From a virus (lineage: Duplodnaviria; Heunggongvirae; Uroviricota; Caudoviricetes), in IMG/VR virus record IMGVR_UViG_3300043172_000799, positions 92,944 to 156,943 of that record: a DNA stretch of 64,000 nucleotides; one strand, given 5' to 3'. The stretch's first letter is position 1, and each line of letters opens with the position of its first letter. The translations under genes and the position numbers were made by a program. This document shows, one piece after another, positions 5,851 to 64,000 of this stretch. The notes under the pieces were generated by a model, which was not told where the DNA came from, made no database searches, and worked only from the letters and a program-made list of their open reading frames with translations.

Positions 5851-6524
5851 TTCCCCTTAAACAGCGTATCATTACGATAAACAACAACTTGATTCTGTGG
5901 ACTTAAAATCTGCACATCATGCCCACAAGTTACAATACTAATATTATTTTGTTCTAACTGCTGTGTACTTAATAATTGATGATTAGGCATACAACATGGG
6001 TTAGTATAAACATATTTCCAATTAGGGAAGGCTTTCATTACTTCCATAGTGTGTACATGTGAATGAACTAACACAATGGCAAGATGTTTCTTTTTTTGTG
6101 TTCCCATAGCATACCAACTATCCATAGCAGACATATTCTTTTCATAATCTTGCCATGTAGATTTATATGCATTAAAATCTACAACATCATACCGTTCCAT
6201 CCAATTATTCATAAATTTAAGATTGGTTTGTGGATCAATAGACACATTAACCGATTTACCCATGAAAGTAAAGAGTGCTCCGGTACGAGCTGTACTTCCA
6301 TCCCCAATATGAAGATTAAAAAAATCATCTAATTTCAATCCATCTTTATACACGGCATTTGCTACATGATGAAATGCCCCATAACTTTCTGTAATCTCTT
6401 TAATGGGATTTGCAGTATGTCCAAATAACGTACTGAGTTCTTCATAGCAATTTCTCTTTAATAAACTATTTGCATATTTCATTAACACACCTCCTTTTTC
6501 ATTTCTCCACCACATACAGGGCAA
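5847..6524 (-). CDS. hypothetical protein
   Basis: 225-aa ORF. No ABC signature, so it is not the missing SbcC C-terminal half. His-rich 'VHSHVHT' and 'TCGHD'. Confidence 0.4.
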   Translation of the reverse strand: MPCMWWRNEKGGVLMKYANSLLKRNCYEELSTLFGHTANPIKEITESYGAFHHVANAVYKDGLKLDDFFNLHIGDGSTARTGALFTFMGKSVNVSIDPQTNLKFMNNWMERYDVVDFNAYKSTWQDYEKNMSAMDSWYAMGTQKKKHLAIVLVHSHVHTMEVMKAFPNWKYVYTNPCCMPNHQLLSTQQLEQNNISIVTCGHDVQILSPQNQVVVYRNDTLFKGK

Positions 6525-7705
6525 GCTTCATCCTTGATCTTCTCAAAATCCTCTTCAATAGATTTATCATAATCTCTCAGATCATCTTCCCAATCTTCAA
6601 TACTAACAGAGATACCTTCAAGTGTTTGATACTCTTTCTTAAGAGTATCTAGCTCATCATAAAGAGTAAGGAGTTCTGCCACATTTCCTTTATACTTATC
6701 AACATCTGTATAGGTTTTGAGTTCTGCTTCATAAGCTTCAATATTTTCAATGCAATCCAGTCTCTTGTTATACTCATCTACCTTTTTTGATTTTAGATCA
6801 AACAGAGGCAGGAGTTTTTCTACTAGATCTTTATTCTTGACAGTCCTATCAATCTCTTTTAATTCTCTTTCTTTAGTGGAGATACTATCTTTAATATCAA
6901 AAAGATCAGTTCTCTGTTCAATTTTCTCATCGAGAGCATTGTGTAATTTTAGCACATTCTCTACTAAAGTGGAATTGGAAGTGATATCCTCTATTGACTT
7001 TAATTCTTTAGAAAGATTCTCCAAATTCTCCCTAATACCAACTAGATGCTCATGCCCCTCTTTATTCTCTATCAGTTCTTTTTCTAATTCCAGTAACTCA
7101 TTAACATCTTTTCCCATAGCTTCAATAAAATCGAATTTGGCAATTTCTTCACTGTACTTCTTAAGATTAATATCAGAAGCATCTTTTTCCTTTTTAATCT
7201 TTCTAATAATCTTTCCGGCATTGGAAATAGATTCATCAATGATCTCTAGATTCACCATCTTATTGAGTGTCTTAGCTACCGTAGATGAGTTGTCATTAAG
7301 CATAAAATGTGTTTCGAACTGACTCTGGGTATTGACCTCATTTATATTTAGGATGCGCTGTACGTCTTCTGGAACGCTCTGATTGAAGTTCTGAATAGGA
7401 TCATTATTATTGATGATGTACATATTCTCAGTACGGGTACGCACCCTCTTGATACTATCTCCTTCAAATGTTCTAATTTCTACAGAACACGTTTCTCCTT
7501 TCTTTATCTTTCCTTTATCATCTTGTATCCAGTGGGAAGCATAATTATTTCCTTGATAGTTTTTGAATACAAAAGCCATAGCGTGTTGTAGATTACTTTT
7601 TCCAGCATCTCCTGATGCTGTTATTGTGTTCAATCCATCTATAAAAGAAAATACTTCATGCTTGTACGGACCATAGTTTGTAAGTTCAACTTCCTTTATT
7701 TTCAT
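6482..7705 (-). CDS. SbcC/Rad50-like ATPase, N-terminal half ending at the zinc hook (T4 gp46-like)
   Basis: N-terminal Walker A 'TITASGDAGKSNLQHAMAFVF'. Then about 300 aa of Glu/Lys-rich coiled coil. Ends 'CPVCGGEMKKEVC', a Rad50-type CxxC hook. No signature, Walker B or H-loop. Confidence 0.7.
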   Translation of the reverse strand: MKIKEVELTNYGPYKHEVFSFIDGLNTITASGDAGKSNLQHAMAFVFKNYQGNNYASHWIQDDKGKIKKGETCSVEIRTFEGDSIKRVRTRTENMYIINNNDPIQNFNQSVPEDVQRILNINEVNTQSQFETHFMLNDNSSTVAKTLNKMVNLEIIDESISNAGKIIRKIKKEKDASDINLKKYSEEIAKFDFIEAMGKDVNELLELEKELIENKEGHEHLVGIRENLENLSKELKSIEDITSNSTLVENVLKLHNALDEKIEQRTDLFDIKDSISTKERELKEIDRTVKNKDLVEKLLPLFDLKSKKVDEYNKRLDCIENIEAYEAELKTYTDVDKYKGNVAELLTLYDELDTLKKEYQTLEGISVSIEDWEDDLRDYDKSIEEDFEKIKDEACPVCGGEMKKEVC

Positions 7706-8202
7706 TTGTAAGCTCCTTGTAATTCCTTGAGTATTCCCCGTAATACTTCAGTTCTCTCTTCCCATTGCTCTACTGTTTCGTGTTTAGGGATAGTCATCAA
7801 ATCTGTTTGAACATCAGCACAACCAGCACTGTAGTACTGAAAATATACATCGGCTTGTCTGTGATACACCAGATCAAGATTATACTTTTCTCTATCTATC
7901 ATAAACCTATCAACGAATCTTTCCCACTCCTCAACTGTTTCGTGTTTTGATGATTGTAACTGGTTAACTTCTTTTAATAGCCTATCAACCTGTTCCCTGT
8001 TTAAAATAAACTCATCCTTGAGATCTTTTGAAGCCAACATAAACCCGAGAGCTAAAATTACGCTCTGATCCCCTTCTCTCAATTTCTCATTCACTATTAT
8101 CCTCCAAGTCTGAGACGGTGGTGAGTTCCCACCAATTAGATTCAGATAAATAACAATCCTGCTCAGTGTCTTTGTCGTACAATTCATAAATAACATAATC
8201 AT
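7702..8202 (-). CDS. hypothetical protein with two 'KHETVE(E/Q)WE' repeats
   Basis: Internal repeats 'SKHETVEEWERF' and 'PKHETVEQWEER'. The true start is probably an internal Met, since the track ORF overlaps its upstream neighbour by 116 nt. Confidence 0.4.
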   Translation of the reverse strand: MIMLFMNCTTKTLSRIVIYLNLIGGNSPPSQTWRIIVNEKLREGDQSVILALGFMLASKDLKDEFILNREQVDRLLKEVNQLQSSKHETVEEWERFVDRFMIDREKYNLDLVYHRQADVYFQYYSAGCADVQTDLMTIPKHETVEQWEERTEVLRGILKELQGAYK

Positions 8203-44164: not shown

Positions 44165-46960
44165 TTATGCACTTTCTTCATAGTCCCATTCATATCCGTA
44201 ACTCCTTATCAATTCTGCCTCTTTCTTTTCATCATCCCAATCTTTATCAGCATAAATATGATCATACCAATTCCCATTATCATAGTATTCTACATCCGCT
44301 TTCATGGTATGTATAACCCATCTGTGTTTCTTCATTAGATATGTAGTCATATAATAAACAACTTTCTCACGCAAACCCTTCCCTATCCATTCAGATAGAT
44401 CTTCTGGTGTATCAAAGTATATAGCATCATGAATCTGGGCTACTATTTTTGTCTTTAACTTGTTTTTATCTATATATTCTTGTATTTTAGTTTGTGCCTG
44501 AAGAATAAGATGAAAAGCAGGTCCTTGTATCACGTAATTGTTACACTGATTTCTATTCATAACTGTAGTTGAATAGAAGCCTGTTGCTAATTTTGTTCTC
44601 ATATTTTTTACATAATTTTTCCAGTTATCTTTTCTCCATTGTCCAAACTCTCCATAATTATCCTCCCAGTACCAATCACACACAGTTTTTATATGCTCTG
44701 TAAATTTCTTTTCTGTATCTATTTTAGACTCTTTGAAATATTGTTTGTGGTATTCCTGTAGATGTTTATTGTACACTGTTGGACCTATACTGAGATATAT
44801 ATCTCCAAATTGTAATGAAAAGGACATACCATTTTTACCTATATACCTAAGATCTTTCCACATATGAGCTTCCGTGTCATTTTTAGCATCATAATTTCCC
44901 ATTTCTTTTTTAATCTCTATCATGTCTTTAGATACTTGAGACAATTCCCCCATAAACAATTTTTCAGCTAAGCCAAGATGCATATCTAATCCTTCCTCTA
45001 ATTGTTTGAGCATGGTTTTATCATGATGTACAGAACACCCTACACCCACTTCTAAACTACTTGCATCTGCTCCTATGATTCTGTTTCCTTCTGAAGACAT
45101 TAAGAAAGACTTTGACATCTCTGCTGCAAATGGATCATGTTGACTTTGATTCTGCCAGTTTGGATTTTGAGAAGATCCTCTATAACTTTTTGGTATATTC
45201 AAAGAGAACATAGGGTATATGTGCCCTTCTACCATTTCTCTTCTAACACCTTTCAAATCTTGTGTTAATTTTATCAATTTAGCAAGCTCCAAGTACATTT
45301 TCAAAAACTCAGATAACGGAGCTATGTCTTTTAGCTCTTTAGCTTCTGTTGAATATTGATCCCCTCCTGTTTTTTTTGTTTTAGGTAATCTCAAAATATT
45401 AAAAAGAAAATCCGACAATTGTTTGCCAGAACTATAGTTGAACTCTGTATCTCTATTCTCATACCACTTATCAATTTCTGGACAATTTTTAATATTGTAT
45501 TGCAATTTGACTATTTTCTTTTCTAATATCATTTCATTTTTTATCAATCTTTCTTCATCTATTCTAAACCCATTCTCCATCATTCTACAAAAAGATAACA
45601 TACCATCATGAAATAAGTGAAAACCCTTCATCAAATGTGGATCACCTTCTATTTGTGGCCTCTGCCATTCATAAAGATGATATGTAAAATGGCTATCTTT
45701 TGCACAATATAAACACATATCCTTTAAATCCATAAGATGCATTGTATTGAAGCCATTTGCACCATATAATGCTTTCTCTTCTTTTGTAGATTTAATATAA
45801 CTATCTGCCATACTATCATATCCTAGAATTCCAAATCTCATATATGTCTGTACTTTTAAACCTGTGATATTAGATCTATTATCCAAAATGTGAGAAACTA
45901 GCATTGTGTCCCATACAAAGTTTTCAGATCTGTATCCAAATATGGAAATACTAGCTTGATACTCATATGCCATATTGTGTGATATTTTTCCAACCCTATT
46001 AGATTGAAGCAATCTCTTTAGATTATCCATAAATGGTTTGTTGTCATAGAATATAGGAAAACCATAAGATACAATACCATTACTAAAGGACACACAATAT
46101 ATTTTATGTCCTTTTTTTTGTAATTTTATACCACTTGCCTCATAGTCAAAAGATACTAAACTTTCCTTTTGCATACATTTCAGAACATGAGTAGCATCCT
46201 CCTCATGCATTACGGTACAACACTCTGACTCATATGTATCTTTTCTAAATTCTTTTTTTGATAATATATTTTTTAAATATTTTATAAAGAATTTTTCCTT
46301 TAATATAAAATCATCATACTCACATAATTTTTCATTCTTCCATAAAACAATTTTATCATCAGAACTTTTCCATTTCCCCCATTTTTTCAAGGAGTCTCTT
46401 CTTTTTTTAAGAGGCTGGAGTACAAAATTAATGTCATAATTTGGCATAACTAGCTTATGCAATTCTTGATCTGGTATTATAGTTCCATAGAACTTTTCTG
46501 TAGGTTTAAGGCTCATCCTTCCATTACATCTATCCCCTAAAAGAATCTCTAAAGGAAGTTCTCCTAGTGTTATTATTTTTTTAGGATTTAATTGCTTGAT
46601 TGTTTTATGCAATTTGTATTTGCAACTATTTATAATCTGAGTACTAGGTCCTCCCCAGTCCTCAGAAAAACATCTCACAGAAGGCACATACCAGCAATCT
46701 CTTTCTAAGTCAATATTAATTTTCTGTAAAGCATGTTTTAAATATTTCCCTTGTATATTACTTAAAAGTTTTCCAGATTGGTCTTCCCTTTCACTTGGAG
46801 GTGCTCCCACAATTAAGATGGATTTATCTCCGTTACCTACCACTCCTAGTTTTGGATTTTGGCAGTCCATATAAGCTTTACAACTTTCACAGCCTCCAAT
46901 TTTCTTTTTATTAACTTTCTTTCTAACTATTTCTTTTTCTATTTCAAAGAATCCTCGCAT
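44165..46960 (-). CDS. family A DNA polymerase with N-terminal family-4 UDG-like domain
   Basis: N-terminus 'GCESCKAYMDC...ILIVGAPPSEREDQSGKLL...SVRCF...IITLGELPLEIL' fits the UDG family 4 layout (GCxxC...GEAPGxxED..G.pF...N.vkCrPP). Motif A-like 'GADASSLEVGVGCSVHHD'. Motif B-like 'RYIGKNGMSFSLQFG'. Motif C 'VAQIHDAIYFD'. Confidence 0.8.
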   Translation of the reverse strand: MRGFFEIEKEIVRKKVNKKKIGGCESCKAYMDCQNPKLGVVGNGDKSILIVGAPPSEREDQSGKLLSNIQGKYLKHALQKINIDLERDCWYVPSVRCFSEDWGGPSTQIINSCKYKLHKTIKQLNPKKIITLGELPLEILLGDRCNGRMSLKPTEKFYGTIIPDQELHKLVMPNYDINFVLQPLKKRRDSLKKWGKWKSSDDKIVLWKNEKLCEYDDFILKEKFFIKYLKNILSKKEFRKDTYESECCTVMHEEDATHVLKCMQKESLVSFDYEASGIKLQKKGHKIYCVSFSNGIVSYGFPIFYDNKPFMDNLKRLLQSNRVGKISHNMAYEYQASISIFGYRSENFVWDTMLVSHILDNRSNITGLKVQTYMRFGILGYDSMADSYIKSTKEEKALYGANGFNTMHLMDLKDMCLYCAKDSHFTYHLYEWQRPQIEGDPHLMKGFHLFHDGMLSFCRMMENGFRIDEERLIKNEMILEKKIVKLQYNIKNCPEIDKWYENRDTEFNYSSGKQLSDFLFNILRLPKTKKTGGDQYSTEAKELKDIAPLSEFLKMYLELAKLIKLTQDLKGVRREMVEGHIYPMFSLNIPKSYRGSSQNPNWQNQSQHDPFAAEMSKSFLMSSEGNRIIGADASSLEVGVGCSVHHDKTMLKQLEEGLDMHLGLAEKLFMGELSQVSKDMIEIKKEMGNYDAKNDTEAHMWKDLRYIGKNGMSFSLQFGDIYLSIGPTVYNKHLQEYHKQYFKESKIDTEKKFTEHIKTVCDWYWEDNYGEFGQWRKDNWKNYVKNMRTKLATGFYSTTVMNRNQCNNYVIQGPAFHLILQAQTKIQEYIDKNKLKTKIVAQIHDAIYFDTPEDLSEWIGKGLREKVVYYMTTYLMKKHRWVIHTMKADVEYYDNGNWYDHIYADKDWDDEKKEAELIRSYGYEWDYEESA

Positions 46961-54135: not shown

Positions 54136-56178
54136 TTAAAAATTAATTTTAATTACTCTTGAAAAATTTCCTTCAATCTTAGTGGTTATACTATTGCGCT
54201 GTGTTGAAGAAAATCCCAAACCTGATAATTGTCTATCTGAAGATGCAACTCGCATTTTTGACCCCATAGCTTCGAAGACTCTTTTGTGCTCCATAAGCTT
54301 AGTATTTAAATGCTCATTGTAGAATCCTCTTGGGGCATTCTCATTTTTGCATTCATCCATGAAGAAGAAATAATGTTTATTCATAATCTCTTCCTGACCA
54401 TCCCAATAATTTGGTGACAGCATTGCTACAGATACTTTTGTGAACTTATTAGTATTTACTCCCCAGATCTCTTTAGAGGAAGTTGTAGAATCTAGAGATT
54501 TAATAAACTTAATGCCATTCTCTCTACTAAACTCAAGGGTAGCTACAGGAACATTCTCTTGGCTTCTAAGCTCTTTTGGGTATTCATAGGAATAAATCTC
54601 TCCCTCATATTCAATCTCGGCAGTAAATCCACTTCTGCCTCCATTATGGGAATAGTTGTGTACGAAGAATTCATATCTTCCCTCTAGCATCTTATGCTTG
54701 TCAGTCCACGTAATATTCTCTACTGCCGGACCATTTGGGCGTTCTCTCATAGGGCGCTGGATATCTACATCAAGTTTCCCACTAGTTCTGCTGGTACGAT
54801 TACCATAATAAAGATGCTCTCCACCTCTAGGTTCCCGTACATGTGCATCAAAGTCATTATCATTGTCCCGATCATCATTCCATTGTATTGAAAATCTGAG
54901 AACACCATCTACATCTCCACCGGCACTCTTAACATTCTGTTTCATACTATCTGCAACATCACCATTATATGCCCACGAAAAATTATTATTCCACTGTAAA
55001 ATACTCTTGGCATCTTTGTCAGTTGGAGCTACTAAACTCATGAAATTCCCTTTGTGTCTATTTTCCATCATAACCTCTACATTGGTAGCTGTAGGAAGAA
55101 TATTCTCTACAAAATCCTCAATAGATACTTCCTCTACCTTATTGAACTTTTTAGGATTCTCAGCCACTTCATCCTTAAGTTCATCAAAGATAGATCCACC
55201 CATTTTATTCTGGGCATCTCTATTTGTCCACAATACATTATTGATAGTGATGTCTTCAAGTACTGCGTGTTTTCTTCCAAGAGATTTCTCCAGCCCCAAT
55301 TCTATCATAGTCTTCTCTGCCTGTTCAACCATCTTCTTGGTGAAAATAGCTTTGGGTCTTTTGTAATTGGAAGGAGCCATTACTCTTTCAAACTTTTTTA
55401 CAGCCTCATCCAGATCCATCTCTTTAGATAAATCAATTAAAAGTGTCCCAACAGCCGTGTTTCGAATTTTAGCTATAGAACTTGCTCCTGAAGTTACCCA
55501 ACACCAGTTGTCCTTTTCTGAGTCGGGAACATCCATAAAAAGTGTTTTGTACTTGATGAACTCAGAAATAGCCTTTCTGTGCTCTTTTCCCCGATAAATA
55601 GATTTCTGATCAATTAGATCTAGAAAGGTATTTCCGGCTTCTAAGGTAAGCTCTACCATAGATCTCTGGAATACCTGTTTAAAGGAGAGAGCAGTTCCCT
55701 GTAAATCTCCTGCCGATTTGCTTGTAGTATTTACAAATTTAGCAGGAAGTTTGTAGTGAAAATGTTCCCATGTAAGAATGCTTTTGTCTTCCAACTGTTC
55801 CCGATTATAATCTGTACCCATGTTTGCTTCTTTAGTTACAAAGATATTTCGTATCGGAGCAGACTTTACCAACGCAGACATCTTCTCTGTTACGACAGCA
55901 AATGTAGGATCAGACACTTCCATATCCCAAATTGAAATCAGGGAGTTGTTCTTGACCACAACCATATTTCCGAAAGGTCTAATAAACTGTCTACAACAAT
56001 TACAGTCAAATTCTCTGCGTTCCCTATGGATCTCGTTTGTACCCTCTGGAAAACTATCCAGATAGGTGTGCCATAAATCATCTTTAGAAACATCTGTCAC
56101 AAAAAGCCTGTCCTGTCCAACCAACATCATGGCAATGTGCTTTTGCATCTCTTTCTTAAATACCTTAAAGTTACTCAT
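54136..56178 (-). CDS. large hypothetical protein (680 aa)
   Basis: Long uninterrupted ORF. 'DCNCCRQF' Cys cluster. No family recognised. Confidence 0.5.
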   Translation of the reverse strand: MSNFKVFKKEMQKHIAMMLVGQDRLFVTDVSKDDLWHTYLDSFPEGTNEIHRERREFDCNCCRQFIRPFGNMVVVKNNSLISIWDMEVSDPTFAVVTEKMSALVKSAPIRNIFVTKEANMGTDYNREQLEDKSILTWEHFHYKLPAKFVNTTSKSAGDLQGTALSFKQVFQRSMVELTLEAGNTFLDLIDQKSIYRGKEHRKAISEFIKYKTLFMDVPDSEKDNWCWVTSGASSIAKIRNTAVGTLLIDLSKEMDLDEAVKKFERVMAPSNYKRPKAIFTKKMVEQAEKTMIELGLEKSLGRKHAVLEDITINNVLWTNRDAQNKMGGSIFDELKDEVAENPKKFNKVEEVSIEDFVENILPTATNVEVMMENRHKGNFMSLVAPTDKDAKSILQWNNNFSWAYNGDVADSMKQNVKSAGGDVDGVLRFSIQWNDDRDNDNDFDAHVREPRGGEHLYYGNRTSRTSGKLDVDIQRPMRERPNGPAVENITWTDKHKMLEGRYEFFVHNYSHNGGRSGFTAEIEYEGEIYSYEYPKELRSQENVPVATLEFSRENGIKFIKSLDSTTSSKEIWGVNTNKFTKVSVAMLSPNYWDGQEEIMNKHYFFFMDECKNENAPRGFYNEHLNTKLMEHKRVFEAMGSKMRVASSDRQLSGLGFSSTQRNSITTKIEGNFSRVIKINF

Positions 56179-57694: not shown

Positions 57695-58282
57695 TTAAAT
57701 CATTCCTTCAACAGCTCCCCAAAGTATCTCCACTGATGGTGTGTAATCTGCACCATAATAAATACTAAAAGCATACTCAATAACCTGTAGGGGGATTCTC
57801 TTGTCTGATTGCATGTTGCCAATGCCCCATGCATATGCCATATATGCTCCGATCCAATCACCCTCTAATTTCTCTACTAAATATCGCATATATATTGCAC
57901 CAATTCGGATGTTCTCATATTTGTCAAGAAGATCTATTGTCTTTCCATTGTTAAATTTATTACTAAAGTATTCTAAATTAGAATCGTTTATCTGGGAGTA
58001 CCCAATACTAGTAGATCCATTCCTCTCATGCCTAATTGCATGTGGATTCATCTGGCTTTCTATTTTATGTTGTCGATATAAGAACTTCACAGGAATCATA
58101 AACCCTCTGCTGATTTCCAAAATGTATTCTCTATCCTCTACTGGGTATTGATATAGAAATCTTTGTTCTTCTGTAATTGTCATCCTTACATAGTCATCTT
58201 CCGGTAGTTCTGTCGGTTTGAATTCTCCGGCATTTGCATAGCTCATCACTGCAAACATTAGTATTAATAAACTTTTTTTCAT
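57695..58282 (-). CDS. secreted lytic transglycosylase (SLT domain)
   Basis: Signal peptide 'MKKSLLILMFAVMSYANA'. 'NGSTSIGYSQINDSNLEYF' matches SLT 'nGS.DiGLMQIN'. 'IGAIYMRYL'. Confidence 0.65.
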   Translation of the reverse strand: MKKSLLILMFAVMSYANAGEFKPTELPEDDYVRMTITEEQRFLYQYPVEDREYILEISRGFMIPVKFLYRQHKIESQMNPHAIRHERNGSTSIGYSQINDSNLEYFSNKFNNGKTIDLLDKYENIRIGAIYMRYLVEKLEGDWIGAYMAYAWGIGNMQSDKRIPLQVIEYAFSIYYGADYTPSVEILWGAVEGMI

Positions 58283-58351: not shown

Positions 58352-58969
58352 TTAAATATCAGTATATTTCCTTATATCCTTTATTATTTCAAACTTGGTG
58401 GTCTTGAATTTCTTTTGTTTATCAGAATCAGAAGTGAAGATATGCCAAGCATAGCAAGACATCCCGCCCCATTTAATTTTGTCAGGTAGATCTTCTGTCA
58501 TAAAGAACTTGGGATAGCATTTAATTTTCCCTATGTATGCATCATCATCAAAGAACTTTTCATTCATTATAGTGTAGTTCTCCACCCCAATAGGAAGTAA
58601 TGAAAATACAAAGTTACTAATCTCCAAAGCATGTTCTATAAATGCATTCTTTTTTGTGTAGGGTGAATTGAATATGATATAATCATACCACCCATCTTCT
58701 TTTAAGAAATCCTTCTCATATGTGTAACCTGAGTATAAATCAAATTCTGTTACTTGTTCAAAATGCTTCTTTAAAACGTTTCCAATAGCCCCATTTCCAG
58801 CACAAGGATCTAGCACTCTAGCCATTCTTCCAATATTATGGGTGTACAACTTCAGATCCCTCATACCCTCTATTAATGCCATTATTAACGGTGGTGAAGT
58901 TTGATAAAAATCTTTTTTGTTCTCATCATCACTCTTTATCTTTCTATGTATTGCATCATGTACTGCCAT
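58352..58969 (-). CDS. DNA methyltransferase (amino-MTase, likely N6-adenine)
   Basis: Motif I 'LDPCAGNGAIG'. Motif IV 'IIFNSPYTKKN' ((D/N/S)PP(Y/F)-like). Confidence 0.65.
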   Translation of the reverse strand: MAVHDAIHRKIKSDDENKKDFYQTSPPLIMALIEGMRDLKLYTHNIGRMARVLDPCAGNGAIGNVLKKHFEQVTEFDLYSGYTYEKDFLKEDGWYDYIIFNSPYTKKNAFIEHALEISNFVFSLLPIGVENYTIMNEKFFDDDAYIGKIKCYPKFFMTEDLPDKIKWGGMSCYAWHIFTSDSDKQKKFKTTKFEIIKDIRKYTDI

Positions 58970-59410
58970 CTACTCTCCTACAATCTGGTGGTATTTTCCG
59001 TCAATTACTTCTAATTTTATTCTTTCCTTATGGGCAATTACCACATGCTGGCAGTCCGAGCAAAATATCTTTCCCGTTGGCATTTTGTATGTACCCATAT
59101 TATCAGATCCACATTTCGTACATACCAGTTTTATATATTTATCTTCTTTTTTTAATATATTAATATCTACATATGTCTCATCCACACCATCATTTGTAAC
59201 AGAGAGAGTGCAATTTGTTATGTCATGTACTTTTCGTGTTTTTTCCATTACCTCTAACCTTTCAGCCCATGCTGTGGCGATTAAATGTGTTGCTTCTTTG
59301 TACATATTTATAGGGCAATTGACTAAATCCTCAATTGTCTTTATATGATACATTTCTCCCTTTGGTAAACTTAATGGGTTAGCTTCCTTTCCTGTATCAA
59401 TTATATCCAT
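58970..59410 (-). CDS. hypothetical zinc-ribbon protein
   Basis: 'CTKCGSDNMGTYKMPTGKIFCSDCQ'. Confidence 0.35.
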   Translation of the reverse strand: MDIIDTGKEANPLSLPKGEMYHIKTIEDLVNCPINMYKEATHLIATAWAERLEVMEKTRKVHDITNCTLSVTNDGVDETYVDINILKKEDKYIKLVCTKCGSDNMGTYKMPTGKIFCSDCQHVVIAHKERIKLEVIDGKYHQIVGE

Positions 59411-59418
59411 CTCTTCTC

Positions 59419-60960
59419 CTATTTCATTTCAATTTGATATATTTTATTCTTATATTCTAACAATACTTTCTCGCCATAGGCATCAGTGCATAGAATCCCA
59501 TCGAGTGGTATTTTTACATCTCTTAATATTTTATACTGATCCTTTTTAACATGTGTAATAATAAGATCCTCATCAGGGTTTAATAAGATAATCATTCCAT
59601 TTTTCAGAACAGTATAATTACATTCCGCAGGGGCATCTACTTCTACAATATATGATTCATTAAAATCTCTGGAGAATCCATTGGTATTCTGTTTAAAGAT
59701 TCCCACAAAATATTTCTTATCTTTTTCCATAGAGACTACTAAAACATTATTTCTGTATGAACAGTCAGTTATTTTGTACCCATCCAATTTCCCATCTAAA
59801 TTTGTATGAACTAGTGATGTATCATTGGCGACAATAAAATGATTTTTTTTAAAAATTGGATAATAAGCTGCACCATCATACAGTTTTGTATTTAGTGGGA
59901 CATTCATATTAAACGTGGCAGCCATCACATTATATGAAAAGGTGTTTAGCTTCAACATTCCTGATGAAAGCTCCACAAAGGAATCCTCAGAGAGTATAGA
60001 TAGGTTTTTGTGCCCTATAATATCTGCCAACTCGGTGTACCCAACCTTATCTTCTTTCATCTTAAAGAACTTCTTCATTCTGATATCTTTTACTTCGGTT
60101 ATCTTGAGTTTATCAGAGCCTTTCATTGAGATCTCCTTAACTTTTGGAGGCACATTCTGAAACATATTCATAGGAGGAAGAGATCTATTTCCCTTTACAA
60201 ATGTATCCTCATACCAAGTGAGTAACCCTTTTGGGATTATACTAAAATCCTCTACCGAAGCAGGAAGGTTTGTTTTTGAATCAAATACCGAAACATTATT
60301 TTTCATTCTAAGAAGAACATCTTTCTTTGTGTAGTCAGGATGCTTACCTTTAAATGGGTGTATGTTAGTCAGTAGCTGAAAAGTAATAATAGCATAAGAA
60401 TACCAATCAGTTATTTCATTGAATATCTTTTTATCAATTGCCTTTGGATCTGTAATCATGGGGGAAAAAGCTGTAGCTTTATGTCCCTTAGTTTGGTATG
60501 AGTCAATATCAATAAAGTATGGCATATCCAACTTAGCTTTTTCAAATAAGAAATTATTTTCATTTCCATCTACAATAACACAATTGTTCTTATGAATATA
60601 CTCCGTAGTTGTGCGAAGAGTTTCAATCAATTTCAGAATTGAATCTGTTGTAATGTTATTTCTAGTTTTATAACTTTTGGTGAAAAGCTTTGTTAGACTT
60701 TCAGTATTGTGTAGATACTTCATGGAATACCCTACAAAAGTATTATTCTGATCATACAGCACATCTTTAGGACTGACTATATTTGGCTTATCTAAAGTCT
60801 GGAGAATATTTAATTTGCTAATGAAATTATGTGATCTTTCTTTCTGAAATATCTTGTATATGATTCCATCTTTTAGATATATGTCTGCTTCTCCACCGGA
60901 AGTAAGAAAATGAGAATCTGCAATTTTAACCTTATGTCCATTTCTACTAGATATTGTCAT
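59419..60960 (-). CDS. Hanks-type (eukaryotic-like) Ser/Thr protein kinase with about 260-aa C-terminal extension
   Basis: Gly loop 'TSGGEADIYL'. Beta3 Lys 'IYKIFQK'. Catalytic loop 'VIVDGNENNFLF' (D...N). 'FIDIDSY' (DFG-like). 'DWYSYAIITFQLLTNIHPF' matches subdomain IX 'DvWSlGvilyeLltG.pPF'. Confidence 0.6.
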   Translation of the reverse strand: MTISSRNGHKVKIADSHFLTSGGEADIYLKDGIIYKIFQKERSHNFISKLNILQTLDKPNIVSPKDVLYDQNNTFVGYSMKYLHNTESLTKLFTKSYKTRNNITTDSILKLIETLRTTTEYIHKNNCVIVDGNENNFLFEKAKLDMPYFIDIDSYQTKGHKATAFSPMITDPKAIDKKIFNEITDWYSYAIITFQLLTNIHPFKGKHPDYTKKDVLLRMKNNVSVFDSKTNLPASVEDFSIIPKGLLTWYEDTFVKGNRSLPPMNMFQNVPPKVKEISMKGSDKLKITEVKDIRMKKFFKMKEDKVGYTELADIIGHKNLSILSEDSFVELSSGMLKLNTFSYNVMAATFNMNVPLNTKLYDGAAYYPIFKKNHFIVANDTSLVHTNLDGKLDGYKITDCSYRNNVLVVSMEKDKKYFVGIFKQNTNGFSRDFNESYIVEVDAPAECNYTVLKNGMIILLNPDEDLIITHVKKDQYKILRDVKIPLDGILCTDAYGEKVLLEYKNKIYQIEMK

Positions 60961-61714
60961 TTTTCCATACTCCTATAGAGAAATCATCATGGGGAAATAT
61001 ATTTTCTTTAGTGAACTGTTTTATCATGAAGCTCATACGTCTACTTAGGAATTCTCCCGAACCCTTAAACCCAGTTATATGTCTAAGTACTATTTGAGGG
61101 TCAATAACTTTTCCATTTTTTCTGAAATCAAAAATTCCATCGGATGCTATTCCAACATATTCTAGATTTTCTTTTCGAAAAAACTTGTTTGGAAAATTAC
61201 ATTCCTGAAATTCCTCTACCTCTTCTCCTTCAATGTTAAACCACTTCGCAATGTATTTTTGATCCTTTGTAGATTCATCGTACAATTCCTTCCGTTTATT
61301 GTCTATCAGATAAGACGGATACATAGGAGTGTTCTCTGAGTAAGAGTATTCAATAAAGGTAGGAAACTCATCTTCTTTTTTCTTGAAGAATAATAGTCCA
61401 TCACCAATTATACTAACTCGAATATCATTCTTTTCTTCTTTTAATACTAAGCATGTAGCATCAAGATAACTTGTACCTTTTTTCTCTAATGTAGCAGAAC
61501 ATATATGAGCTAAAGCTTCCCAGTTAGGACTATCCATTCTCTTTCTCGATTGCAAATATTTATATCCTACTTCAGAGTATAATAATGCTCCTAGATGACT
61601 ATTCTTAGAGGAGCTACACCCATCTGCTAGAATTATCATATTATTGTCTATATTAGACACGTAATCTTCACAGCGTTCTTTTTGAAATGCTGTTTTCTGA
61701 TATATATCTATCAT
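60947..61714 (-). CDS. PP2C-family Ser/Thr phosphatase
   Basis: 'MIILADGCSSS' matches 'lfaVaDGhGG'. 'VSIIGDGLLFF' matches 'vanvGDSRa'. 'VGIASDGIFDF' matches 'lvlaSDGlwd'. C-terminal 'DDFSIGVW' matches 'DNiTvivv'. Confidence 0.7.
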   Translation of the reverse strand: MIDIYQKTAFQKERCEDYVSNIDNNMIILADGCSSSKNSHLGALLYSEVGYKYLQSRKRMDSPNWEALAHICSATLEKKGTSYLDATCLVLKEEKNDIRVSIIGDGLLFFKKKEDEFPTFIEYSYSENTPMYPSYLIDNKRKELYDESTKDQKYIAKWFNIEGEEVEEFQECNFPNKFFRKENLEYVGIASDGIFDFRKNGKVIDPQIVLRHITGFKGSGEFLSRRMSFMIKQFTKENIFPHDDFSIGVWKNDNI

Positions 61715-62626: not shown

Positions 62627-63793
62627 CTAATCTTTAATTTTAAAAACCTGTTTAACGTATTTTACATAATCAGCATCTTCGCACATAAGCTTACCTTTTG
62701 AATCACTAAGTTTAGCTACAGGTCTTCCATTACATTTTACAATTTTCATAACTATTTGTAAAGGAGTAATATTTTCAAAATCATTTGTTAGATGAGTCCC
62801 AATTCCAAATGATAGTTTAGCTTGATCTTTAAATGCATAGTATAAGTCGGCACATTTCTGCATGGTCAAACTATCTGAGAATATTAATGTTTTAGTTTTT
62901 GGATCTATACCTAATTTCTTATAATGAGCTATAGCTTTATCAGCCCATACTTCAGGAGTTCCACTATCATGACGTAAGCCATCAAAGAGTTTAGCAAAGT
63001 ATAAATCAAAATCCACAAGGAATGCATCCATTCCATATGTATCACTAAGTGCTATACCTAAATCTCCTCTATATTCATCTGCCCATTTTTGTAACATATA
63101 GCTTTGAGATTTAACAAGACGTATATCATCCTGTCCAGCTCCTACCATAATATATTCATGAGCCATTGTTCCAATAGGTTTCAGATTATACAGTTTTGCA
63201 AAGTATACATTAGAAGTTCCTTGAAAATTAGGAAGCTTAGAAAATGTAGATATAACAAATTCCTGCCATTCTCTCCCATATCTTCTACGTGTACCAAAAT
63301 CAGCAAATGGAATACCATGCTCTTTTGCATACGCATATTTCTCTTCTAATCGTGTGTACCCACTATTTACTTCTTCTGTACCCATGAGACATGAATGAAA
63401 ACCAAAATAAACTTCATTTACTATTGCTAAAACAGGCACTTCAAACATCACAGTTAGATACCATGGACCTTCTACTTCTATCTGGAGTTCCCAATTGCTG
63501 TCAAGCCAAATTTTAATATGATTTCTATTAGGCTGGTATAGTCTGAGAAAGTCAATAAAATCCTGTTTAAAGAAAGAGAAGGAGGACAGGTATCCTAACT
63601 CACCTTCCTTGAATTTCAGTGTACAGTAATGATCCACTTCTTTGTTGATGTGCTCTAGCATAGCCTCAGTCCAATCTGCTTTGTTCCTGCATTTGAACTT
63701 ATACTTTACATGAGTTGTGTTAAACTGATGTAAGGCACTTTGAAACATAGTAAATTTATATAAGTCAGTATCTAGTAAGCTGTTTATTATCAT
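62627..63793 (-). CDS. pncB: nicotinate phosphoribosyltransferase (PncB)
   Basis: Collinear with E. coli PncB: 'LLDTDLYKFTM', 'GPWYLTVMFEVPVLAIVNE', 'DFGTRRRYGREWQE', 'GTSNVYFAKLYNLKPIGTMAHEY', 'LGIALSDTYGMDAFL', 'GLRHDSGTPEVWADKAIAHYKKLGIDPKTKTLIFSDSL', 'LSFGIGTHLT', 'KIVKCNGRPVAKLSDSKGK'. Confidence 0.9.
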   Translation of the reverse strand: MIINSLLDTDLYKFTMFQSALHQFNTTHVKYKFKCRNKADWTEAMLEHINKEVDHYCTLKFKEGELGYLSSFSFFKQDFIDFLRLYQPNRNHIKIWLDSNWELQIEVEGPWYLTVMFEVPVLAIVNEVYFGFHSCLMGTEEVNSGYTRLEEKYAYAKEHGIPFADFGTRRRYGREWQEFVISTFSKLPNFQGTSNVYFAKLYNLKPIGTMAHEYIMVGAGQDDIRLVKSQSYMLQKWADEYRGDLGIALSDTYGMDAFLVDFDLYFAKLFDGLRHDSGTPEVWADKAIAHYKKLGIDPKTKTLIFSDSLTMQKCADLYYAFKDQAKLSFGIGTHLTNDFENITPLQIVMKIVKCNGRPVAKLSDSKGKLMCEDADYVKYVKQVFKIKD

Positions 63794-63839: not shown

Positions 63840-64000
63840 TCAAGGTAATCTTCTCTCAAATCTACTATTAATAAATTTTATATTTGCAGTAACCATGTGT
63901 TTATGTTTATTGGCAATATGCCTATTCCAGATGAAATGAAATAATGTTGCCTCATTCCCAGTGTACCATAAATCTATCCACTCAGTGCCTATGGTATCAT
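63840..64000 (-). CDS. 3' end of a minus-strand gene running off the window end
   Basis: Open frame '...DTIGTEWIDLWYTGNEATLFHFIWNRHIANKHKHMVTANIKFINSRFERRLP*'. Its stop overlaps the -35 TTGACA upstream of pncB. Confidence 0.3.
   Translation of the reverse strand, partial: DTIGTEWIDLWYTGNEATLFHFIWNRHIANKHKHMVTANIKFINSRFERRLP

Follow-up and report, generated by a model that had tools for sequence, protein, structure and literature searches.

A YegI-like kinase and PP2C phosphatase gene pair of a large phage lies in a four-gene cassette with a vWA protein and a predicted nicotinamidase

A widespread bacterial gene triad, TerY-P, was reportedly described by Anantharaman, Iyer and Aravind in 2012 and combines a vWA (von Willebrand factor type A) protein of TerY-like type with a PP2C phosphatase and a Ser/Thr kinase. 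The TerY-P kinase carries a zinc ribbon, and the triad has been hypothesised to be a metal-sensing phospho-switch (PMC11090510; PMC4978471). A variant with an OB fold is a stand-alone anti-phage system according to the part of the work of Gao et al. 2020 that is reported in PMC11090510. In Escherichia coli, the corresponding genes are yegL, pphC and yegI, and in B strains the pphC stop overlaps the yegI start by 4 nt (bioRxiv 10.1101/819920). The kinase YegI autophosphorylates in vitro with a preference for Mn2+; K39 and D141 are essential, replacement of its DSD motif by DFG or DSG, or of S162 by Ala, abolishes activity, and the enzyme is active with an Asp at the αC Glu position and with other non-canonical residues (bioRxiv 10.1101/819920). 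PphC dephosphorylates autophosphorylated YegI in vitro (bioRxiv 10.1101/303594). Here we analyze a kinase and PP2C phosphatase gene pair at positions 59419-61714 of a 64,000-nt stretch of a caudoviral genome (IMG/VR record IMGVR_UViG_3300043172_000799), hereafter called the window. This pair is the distal half of a cassette with the order nicotinamidase, vWA protein of putative TerY/YegL type, PP2C and kinase, the first of these names being a prediction discussed below.

According to the ORF listing of the window, two minus-strand ORFs fill 59419-61714 exactly. They encode a PP2C/PPM-type Ser/Thr phosphatase of 255 aa (60947..61714), the third gene of the cassette, and a YegI-like Hanks-type Ser/Thr kinase of 513 aa (59419..60960), the fourth; PP2C is the upstream gene, as both are on the minus strand. 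The initial annotation had the kinase stop overlapping the phosphatase start. An overlap does exist, but the order is the reverse: the PP2C stop (TAG, 60947-60949) overlaps the kinase start (ATG, 60958-60960) over 14 nt (60947..60960, minus strand). A Shine-Dalgarno GGAG, read directly from the sequence, lies within the PP2C coding end, 8-9 nt before the kinase ATG, which, together with the overlap, makes translational coupling of the two genes likely. Among the relatives, about 33 of 84 PP2C-kinase junctions overlap or sit ≤20 nt apart, and in all but one of 87 viral loci (86) the kinase has PP2C on its upstream side. A promoter/terminator scan showed no enrichment (29 seen, 31.6 expected) and found no minus-strand terminator inside the gene block, which is compatible with co-transcription and otherwise uninformative.

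The initial annotation described the pair as self-contained, which is not what we observe in its relatives. A word-index search found 62 kinase homologues, and 152 IMG/VR viral contigs encode a kinase relative; in a representative library of 1.84 billion proteins, there are 1,995 kinase clusters (50% identity) at E≤1e-30, on contigs of up to about 600 kb, and the top 150 of these are all full-length (about 535-660 aa). The first three neighbourhoods already showed PP2C before the kinase, with proteins of about 245 and 265 aa further upstream. As the word-index search found only 4 PP2C homologues, the PP2C, vWA and nicotinamidase families were gathered from neighbouring ORFs, called mechanically, with iterated hidden Markov models (HMMs); the locus sets were taken from the best 80 of 152 and the best 80 of 251 hits. 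On the ORFs of 87 kinase-anchored viral loci, these HMMs matched 86 PP2C proteins, 82 of the 245-aa type (vWA) and 78 of the 265-aa type (nicotinamidase, p263), and 64 loci have all four genes in the order nicotinamidase-vWA-PP2C-kinase on one strand, the exceptions being mostly contig ends. After dereplication at 50% kinase identity, all four genes are retained in 41 of 50 clusters. When all ORFs of the loci were clustered, the four cassette families alone were conserved (82, 82, 72 and 68 loci, the next family being present in 25), indicating that the linkage is not a by-product of a conserved core-genome block. The linkage is also seen from the other end, since 79 nicotinamidase-anchored loci contain the vWA gene in 74 cases, PP2C in 71 and the kinase in 68.

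The cassette genes overlap in some loci and are separated by inserted genes in others, over as much as 5.5 kb. In rearranged loci, the nicotinamidase-vWA and PP2C-kinase sub-pairs each remain intact, and vWA, PP2C and kinase are contiguous or nearly so in most of the 87 viral loci and of 53 further loci found in GTDB species genomes with an 11-sequence kinase alignment as the query. These 53 loci carry the cassette too; they all come from metagenome-assembled genomes (MAGs) and none from isolates, with a GC content of 0.23-0.75. A literature search for a nicotinamidase/vWA/kinase cassette, or for YegL/TerY in phage, found no description in the searchable library, and the cassette is apparently undescribed.

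Several of the MAG loci have features of their own. The full cassette occurs inside Mb-scale contigs in L111, L127, L129 (Capsulimonadaceae chromosomes, 3.8-4.4 Mb), L130, L134 and L135, with flanking genes like those around the viral cassettes. Large phages integrated as prophages could account for this, and so could chimeric assembly or binning. A more distant module, ordered PP2C-kinase-nicotinamidase-vWA or kinase-vWA-PP2C and with kinases of 614-651 aa, is found on the MAG contigs L137, L138, L141 and L139, and may link the phage cassette with the triads of bacteria. In L120, one 693-aa ORF (5888-7969) contains vWA (residues 161-400) and PP2C (439-691) in frame. This was the sole Rosetta-stone fusion among the four families and, being either a rare fusion or a sequencing or assembly error, it was not used.

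The two upstream genes of the cassette lie just outside the window and were located on L001, a sequence of the same contig in the opposite orientation, which shares 14,581 nt with the window at 100% identity and runs past its end. By extrapolation, the vWA gene is at 64793-65521 (L001 5440-6168) and the nicotinamidase gene at 65988-66779 (L001 4182-4973), that is, 0.8-2.8 kb past the window end. The vWA gene lies 3.1 kb upstream of PP2C, and NadE, NAPRTase and three small ORFs are found between them. In the vWA family, about 20 members match each of Pfam VWA and VWA_2, and the residues of the metal-ion-dependent adhesion site (MIDAS), D40-x-S-x-S44, T108 and D145, are invariant. The C-terminal tail is Ser-rich and conserved (consensus FVSxSISSQSQALGTGGPSQ). 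A profile search with this family found 2,053 relatives, many of which are named 'uncharacterized protein YegL' by JGI, and hhalign gave a modest match to YegL (probability 75%, E 2.5e-5) with the Ser-rich tail within the alignment. The 265-aa family is predicted to be a PncA-like nicotinamidase: Pfam Isochorismatase is matched by 46 of 58 members, and the top five PDB profile matches are all nicotinamidases or pyrazinamidases (2h0r, the yeast Pnc1, at E 7e-19, then 3pl1, 1ilw and 2wt9 among them). Residues D9, K154, C204, D52, H54 and H120 are invariant or nearly so; we take D9, K154 and C204 to be the Asp-Lys-Cys catalytic triad and D52, H54 and H120 the Asp/His/His metal site.

Both members of the pair are recognised by Pfam above the respective cutoffs, in agreement with the initial annotation of a Hanks-type kinase beside a PP2C phosphatase. 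The kinase matches PF00069 (Pkinase) over residues 40-230 with 46.4 bits against a cutoff of 31.7, and its catalytic domain, delimited from Pfam, AlphaFold2, Foldseek and the invariant residues, covers residues 1-263 (60172..60960, minus strand). The motifs that had been pointed out are all there, most of them with little or no variation in an alignment of 45 full-length relatives. They comprise the Gly loop (S21-G22-G23-E24-A25), the β3 Lys (K36), the catalytic loop (D131-G-N133-E-N-N136, of the non-RD type, IVD), D151-I-D153 at the DFG position, followed by S154, and subdomain IX (D185-W186-Y-S-Y-A-I-I-T-F-Q-L-L). In this alignment, G22, G23, K36, the αE His (H123), D131, N133, N136 (the Asn at D+5) and D151 are invariant, S154 is kept in 42 of 45 sequences, and D185, W186, H201 and P202 in at least 42. 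The catalytic Lys and Asp, whose absence from orthologues would have spoken against a kinase, are thus present in all 45. The αC Glu expected of the Hanks-type superfamily is found in 38 of 45 members; the window kinase has Ile52 at this position and its closest relative, P0002, has Thr.

The AlphaFold2 model built from the family alignment has a mean predicted local distance difference test score (pLDDT) of 83.7, with about 90 over residues 1-260, and Foldseek against the PDB returned eukaryotic-like kinases (DRAK2, DAPK, PDK1) with a probability of 1.0 and a target TM of 0.64-0.70. The model therefore confirms a bilobal Hanks-type Ser/Thr kinase fold, where a failed fold prediction would have spoken against the initial annotation. 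NCBIfam gave only sub-threshold matches, to lanthionine-synthetase and MAD6 kinase domains, and a scan of 38,880 PHROG families (E≤0.01) gave no match for the kinase or for PP2C, so that phage annotation relying on PHROG assigns neither protein to a family. The identical kinase is found on contigs of up to 168 kb.

The relationship of this kinase to YegI is specific and not merely kinase-like, as the family HMM scores YegI at 79.3 bits and the best of 177,635 PDB sequences at 33.4 bits. A profile-profile comparison with hhalign gave a probability of 98.7% (E 4e-16, 231 columns). Because the kinase is specifically YegI-like, the phage triad is probably the counterpart of the bacterial vWA-PP2C-kinase triad, TerY-P, represented in E. 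coli by yegL-pphC-yegI. We hold with high confidence that the pair belongs to the cassette and that it is TerY-P/YegLKI-like.

The rest of the kinase consists of a linker and a β-propeller, residues 264-513 (59419..60171 with the stop codon, minus strand). The initial annotation had an unknown C-terminal domain of 260 aa here; the domain is present, at about 250 aa, but it is not unknown, being a β-propeller where classical TerY-P kinases have a zinc ribbon and the variant of Gao et al. an OB fold. Family members typically have about 300 aa here, so that the domain of the window kinase is some 50 aa short, as is that of the nearest relative, and the model has low confidence over residues 294-347. 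None of the cassette proteins has a transmembrane-like hydrophobic stretch, and both kinase and PP2C are predicted to be soluble. A zinc ribbon is found in the neighbouring ORF (58970-59410, minus strand), which starts 8 nt past the kinase stop and encodes 146 aa with a C-terminal CxxC...CxxC motif. This ORF was considered as a part of the cassette and rejected, since it has no homologue in the other fetched loci.

The phosphatase matches PF13672 (PP2C_2) with 35.5 bits against a cutoff of 24. Its DG, GD and DG motifs are present as the initial annotation stated, and the metal-binding residues D17, D31-G32, G104-D105-G106 and D192-G193 are invariant across 62 homologues, as is D244 of the D243-D244 pair, D243 being nearly so. 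Among solved structures, the profile matches the bacterial PP2Cs 6ihw and 5f1m (E about 4e-4), and hhalign against E. coli PphC gave a probability of 86% (E 5e-6).

The gene context points to NAD+ metabolism, a direction absent from the initial annotation. In the window, a 388-aa nicotinate phosphoribosyltransferase (NAPRTase, PncB-like; 62627..63793, minus strand) matches phrog_448, and its identical copy on L001 matches Pfam NAPRTase_N and NAPRTase; upstream of it lies the 3' end of the NAD synthase gene nadE (63840..64000, minus strand), which leaves the window and matches Pfam NAD_synthase at L001 6282-7121. An HMM of the NAPRTase family from 30 related loci gives the window protein 544 bits. 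Across the loci, the commonest neighbours from outside the cassette are NAPRTase (30 loci by HMM), two NUDIX families (23 and 20) and glutamine-dependent NAD synthase (20), followed by a cytidylyltransferase-like family (13), which is presumably a NadD-like adenylyltransferase acting on nicotinic acid mononucleotide or nicotinamide mononucleotide, and NAD-dependent DNA ligase (6). A PncB, NadE or NadD-like gene lies ≤8 kb from the kinase in 38 of 87 loci, a count not set against a whole-genome background. Within the 64-kb window, NAPRTase is the sole NAD+ gene matched by these HMMs and lies 0.9 kb from PP2C; the NadD-like HMM has no match there. The nicotinamidase and its NAD+ neighbours make up the Preiss-Handler route from nicotinamide to NAD+, and the window phage has most of this salvage route in NAPRTase, NadE and the nearby nicotinamidase.

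On the whole, we lean, with moderate confidence that blends firmer and looser parts, toward the cassette being a phospho-switch that depends on Mn2+/Mg2+ and that is coupled, in the infected cell, to the salvage of nicotinamide/NAD+. In such a switch, the propeller of the kinase would bind a cytoplasmic ligand or protein, and the kinase would activate itself by autophosphorylating S154, the Ser after the D-x-D motif. It would then phosphorylate a cassette partner, the best candidate being the Ser-rich tail of the vWA protein, and the phosphate on this tail could provide the MIDAS metal with its acidic ligand. PP2C, co-translated from the kinase mRNA, would reset the switch. The output would be tied to nicotinamide/NAD+ salvage through control or scaffolding of nicotinamidase and the Preiss-Handler enzymes, for example under NAD+-depleting host defences. 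That the output is NAD+-related is a tentative proposal, somewhat short of an even chance. An unlikely extension is that the cassette is a phosphorylation-gated NAD+ counter-defence, in which the propeller-kinase senses NAD+-depleting immunity or the state of infection, the MIDAS-phosphoserine switch of the vWA protein activates or scaffolds nicotinamidase, and PP2C resets the system.

Several observations weigh against a switch of this kind, or against its kinship with TerY-P. The analysis shows the identities of the genes, their conserved catalytic residues, the folds, the homology to YegL, PphC and YegI, the linkage of the four genes and the NAD+ genes around them, but we infer each step of the mechanism, from the enzyme activities and their targets to the phospho-tail/MIDAS switch and the connection with NAD+ control. 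The profile matches of PP2C (86%) and vWA (75%) to PphC and YegL are modest, the kinase has a propeller in place of the zinc ribbon or OB fold with which TerY-P kinases are described (PMC11090510), and the PADLOC models gave no recurrent match to the vWA family and no match under a TerY name, although the TerY-P vWA content of this release is unchecked. Jumbo phages commonly carry NAD+ genes in any case (PMC11662467), and the nicotinamidase could be adjacent because two independent functions were inherited together. There is partial redundancy among the loci, and with inserts of up to 5.5 kb between cassette genes, a tight operon structure is not required. Finally, the window copy of the kinase could be weakened, because its αC Glu is missing (Ile52) and its propeller is shortened.

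The last point can be taken further, to a window copy that is a decaying or regulatory pseudokinase and no longer signals, whatever the rest of the family does. We consider this very improbable. The Ile where 38 of 45 members have Glu, the Thr of the closest relative, the C-terminal domain about 50 aa short and the low confidence over residues 294-347 are all consistent with decay, but the Gly loop, K36, D131, N136, D151, D153 and S154 are intact, and YegI is active with an Asp at the αC position and other non-canonical residues. Moreover, the ORF is intact and coupled to an intact PP2C, and the same features occur in a 56%-identical relative from another sample. The cassette might instead be a defence or superinfection-exclusion system carried by the phage, in which the triad acts like TerY-P and protects the infected cell, and with it the resident phage, against competing phages, the nicotinamidase being a neighbour without a part in it. 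Such a function fits the architecture of the triad and its relationship to YegI, TerY-P-like modules are stand-alone anti-phage systems in that part of Gao et al. 2020 which PMC11090510 relays, and the kinase domain matches the PADLOC families PD-T4-6 (33 of 45 members) and mad6 (29 of 45), and also MkoA. These matches, however, cover the generic kinase domain only, and the kinase was not accepted as a member of a PADLOC defence system; the vWA family has no recurrent match and only 8 of 62 PP2C members match the PADLOC 'PP2C' model. The kinase ends in a propeller and not in an OB fold or a zinc ribbon, and the cassette is near-universal in a deep and diverse phage lineage (1,995 clusters), unlike patchy accessory defence genes. 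A defence function also leaves the reciprocal nicotinamidase linkage and the NAD+ gene neighbours unexplained, and we regard it as quite unlikely.

The initial annotation likened the pair to the T7 kinase gp0.7. In this case, the kinase would phosphorylate host transcription, translation or RNA-decay proteins early in infection, PP2C would limit or time its action, and vWA and nicotinamidase would be merely syntenic. The position of the genes among replication and nucleotide genes (PolB, ribonucleotide reductase, Dda, ligase, UvsX, DnaB), in one long same-strand block, is in keeping with host takeover, and the propeller could recruit host substrates. Nevertheless, no sequence similarity to gp0.7 was found and the absence of a PHROG match means that there is no detectable similarity to characterised phage kinases, while phosphatase, vWA and nicotinamidase as the sole shared neighbours argue for a closed module and not a lone effector. 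For YegI, the closest characterised relative, itself and its phosphatase are the only substrates demonstrated so far. Takeover seems as doubtful to us as a defence function. The initial annotation also raised antagonism or mimicry of an abortive-infection pathway based on Stk/Stp in some Gram-positive hosts, and we find this the least probable of these explanations. The PP2C would, for example, erase a host kinase signal. In principle, host proteins phosphorylated on Ser/Thr could be restored by a PP2C of the phage, and kinase-based defences do exist, as the PADLOC families illustrate, but no data point to a Gram-positive host. Moreover, the cassette contigs are binned with very diverse MAGs (GC 0.23-0.75), which is hard to reconcile with countering one lineage-specific pathway, and the vWA protein, the propeller and the nicotinamidase linkage would again have no explanation.

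The window belongs to a large, uncultured and deeply divergent phage. The minus strand carries all or nearly all of the long ORFs, the GC content is 32-38%, GC skew stays negative throughout the 64 kb (uniformly so, at -0.12 to -0.31), and no tRNA genes were found in the window. Its genes include a family-B DNA polymerase, ribonucleotide reductase, a Dda-like helicase, an ATP-dependent ligase and a UvsX-like recombinase, besides NAPRTase. None of 50,697 deposited phage genomes matches the polymerase (44165-46960, minus strand) at more than about 22% identity, so that the phage lineage is without a close relative, cultured or deposited. In the same 50,697 records, Megablast of the region gave no match, and tblastn gave four uncultured-phage matches for the kinase and one for PP2C, mostly in unannotated 'huge phage' records of 460-595 kb.

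Other genes close to the pair are also on the minus strand. A 680-aa protein (54136-56178) with a Cys-rich N-terminal CNCC matches phrog_1735 end to end (E 1e-259) and DUF8224 in L001. A 195-aa lytic transglycosylase with an SLT domain (57695-58282) starts with MKKSLLILMFAVMSYANA, by eye a signal peptide, and could be a lysis or entry enzyme; the MKKSLLILMFAVMSYANA N-terminus is not a firm guide to the host envelope. A 205-aa protein (58352-58969) without a Pfam match is perhaps a methyltransferase that is truncated or divergent, as it matches the phrog_799 DNA methyltransferase over only a part of the profile (positions 201-369 of 458). This methyltransferase-like ORF and the ORFs of 74, 55 and 131 aa were rejected as parts of the system, as they are not conserved with the cassette.

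The cassette adds to the known triads a very large phage-borne branch, with a distinct putative sensor domain, the β-propeller, and a near-obligate nicotinamidase partner. Together, the phage branch, the propeller and the nicotinamidase/NAD+ setting suggest a testable candidate for the output of the triad, nicotinamide/NAD+ metabolism, which would connect the triad to phage survival of NAD+-depleting immunity. If the phosphorylation-gated counter-defence described above were true, it would be a first in two respects, as a regulated phage system for NAD+ reconstitution and as an output assigned to any TerY-P-type triad.

Finally, we compare the cassette with the known systems. T7 gp0.7 and the window kinase are both phage-encoded Ser/Thr protein kinases with no detectable sequence relationship, neither member of the pair matching any PHROG family; gp0.7 is not known to come with a cognate phosphatase, a vWA partner or a propeller. 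In the E. coli K-12 locus, yegL (vWA), pphC (PP2C, PphC/YegK) and yegI follow each other in the same order as in the phage cassette. YegI and the phage kinase share GGEG/A, a (V/G)D-x-N-x-N loop, D-x-D-S in place of DFG and H-P-(F/Y)-x-G, with the phage D-x-D-S corresponding to D159-S-D161-S162 of YegI; PphC and the phage PP2C share C-Q/E-D and (A/S)DG motifs, and YegL and the phage vWA protein share the MIDAS site and the Ser-rich tail. Nevertheless, identity between the phage kinase and YegI is low (about 19% over the kinase domain), the Asn at D+5 is kept by the phage kinases and absent from YegI, and YegI has two transmembrane helices and a C-terminal region that is not a propeller, whereas the phage kinase is soluble with a β-propeller. 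The yeg locus, unlike the phage cassette, has no nicotinamidase or NAD+ genes.

With TerY-P, the phage cassette has the same three components in common. The propeller C-terminus and the absence of a TerY-named PADLOC match lead us to call it TerY-P-like and not a member of the described defence system. The surroundings also differ, as bacterial triads adjoin McrBC/CoCoNuT, DNA-processing or type VII secretion genes (PMC11090510; PMC4978471) and the phage triad adjoins nicotinamidase and NAD+ salvage genes. Clustered NAD+ genes are themselves known from large phages, the 'NAD-jumbo phages' with a Preiss-Handler pncB-nadD-nadE set, in a report that makes no mention of kinase, phosphatase or von Willebrand (PMC11662467). 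Reconstitution of NAD+ by phages is an established counter-defence (bioRxiv 10.1101/2024.02.11.579819; PMC13464706), through NARP1 (Adps and Namat), NARP2 (Nampt and Nmnat) and NARP3 (PnuC and NadR). The window phage likewise carries NAD+ genes, for a predicted nicotinamidase, NAPRTase and NadE. Compared with the NARP pathways, the recurrent neighbours at the cassette loci are a Preiss-Handler-type set, as found without a dedicated search for NARP enzymes. PncA, a kinase, a phosphatase or a vWA protein has no part in NARP1, NARP2 or NARP3.

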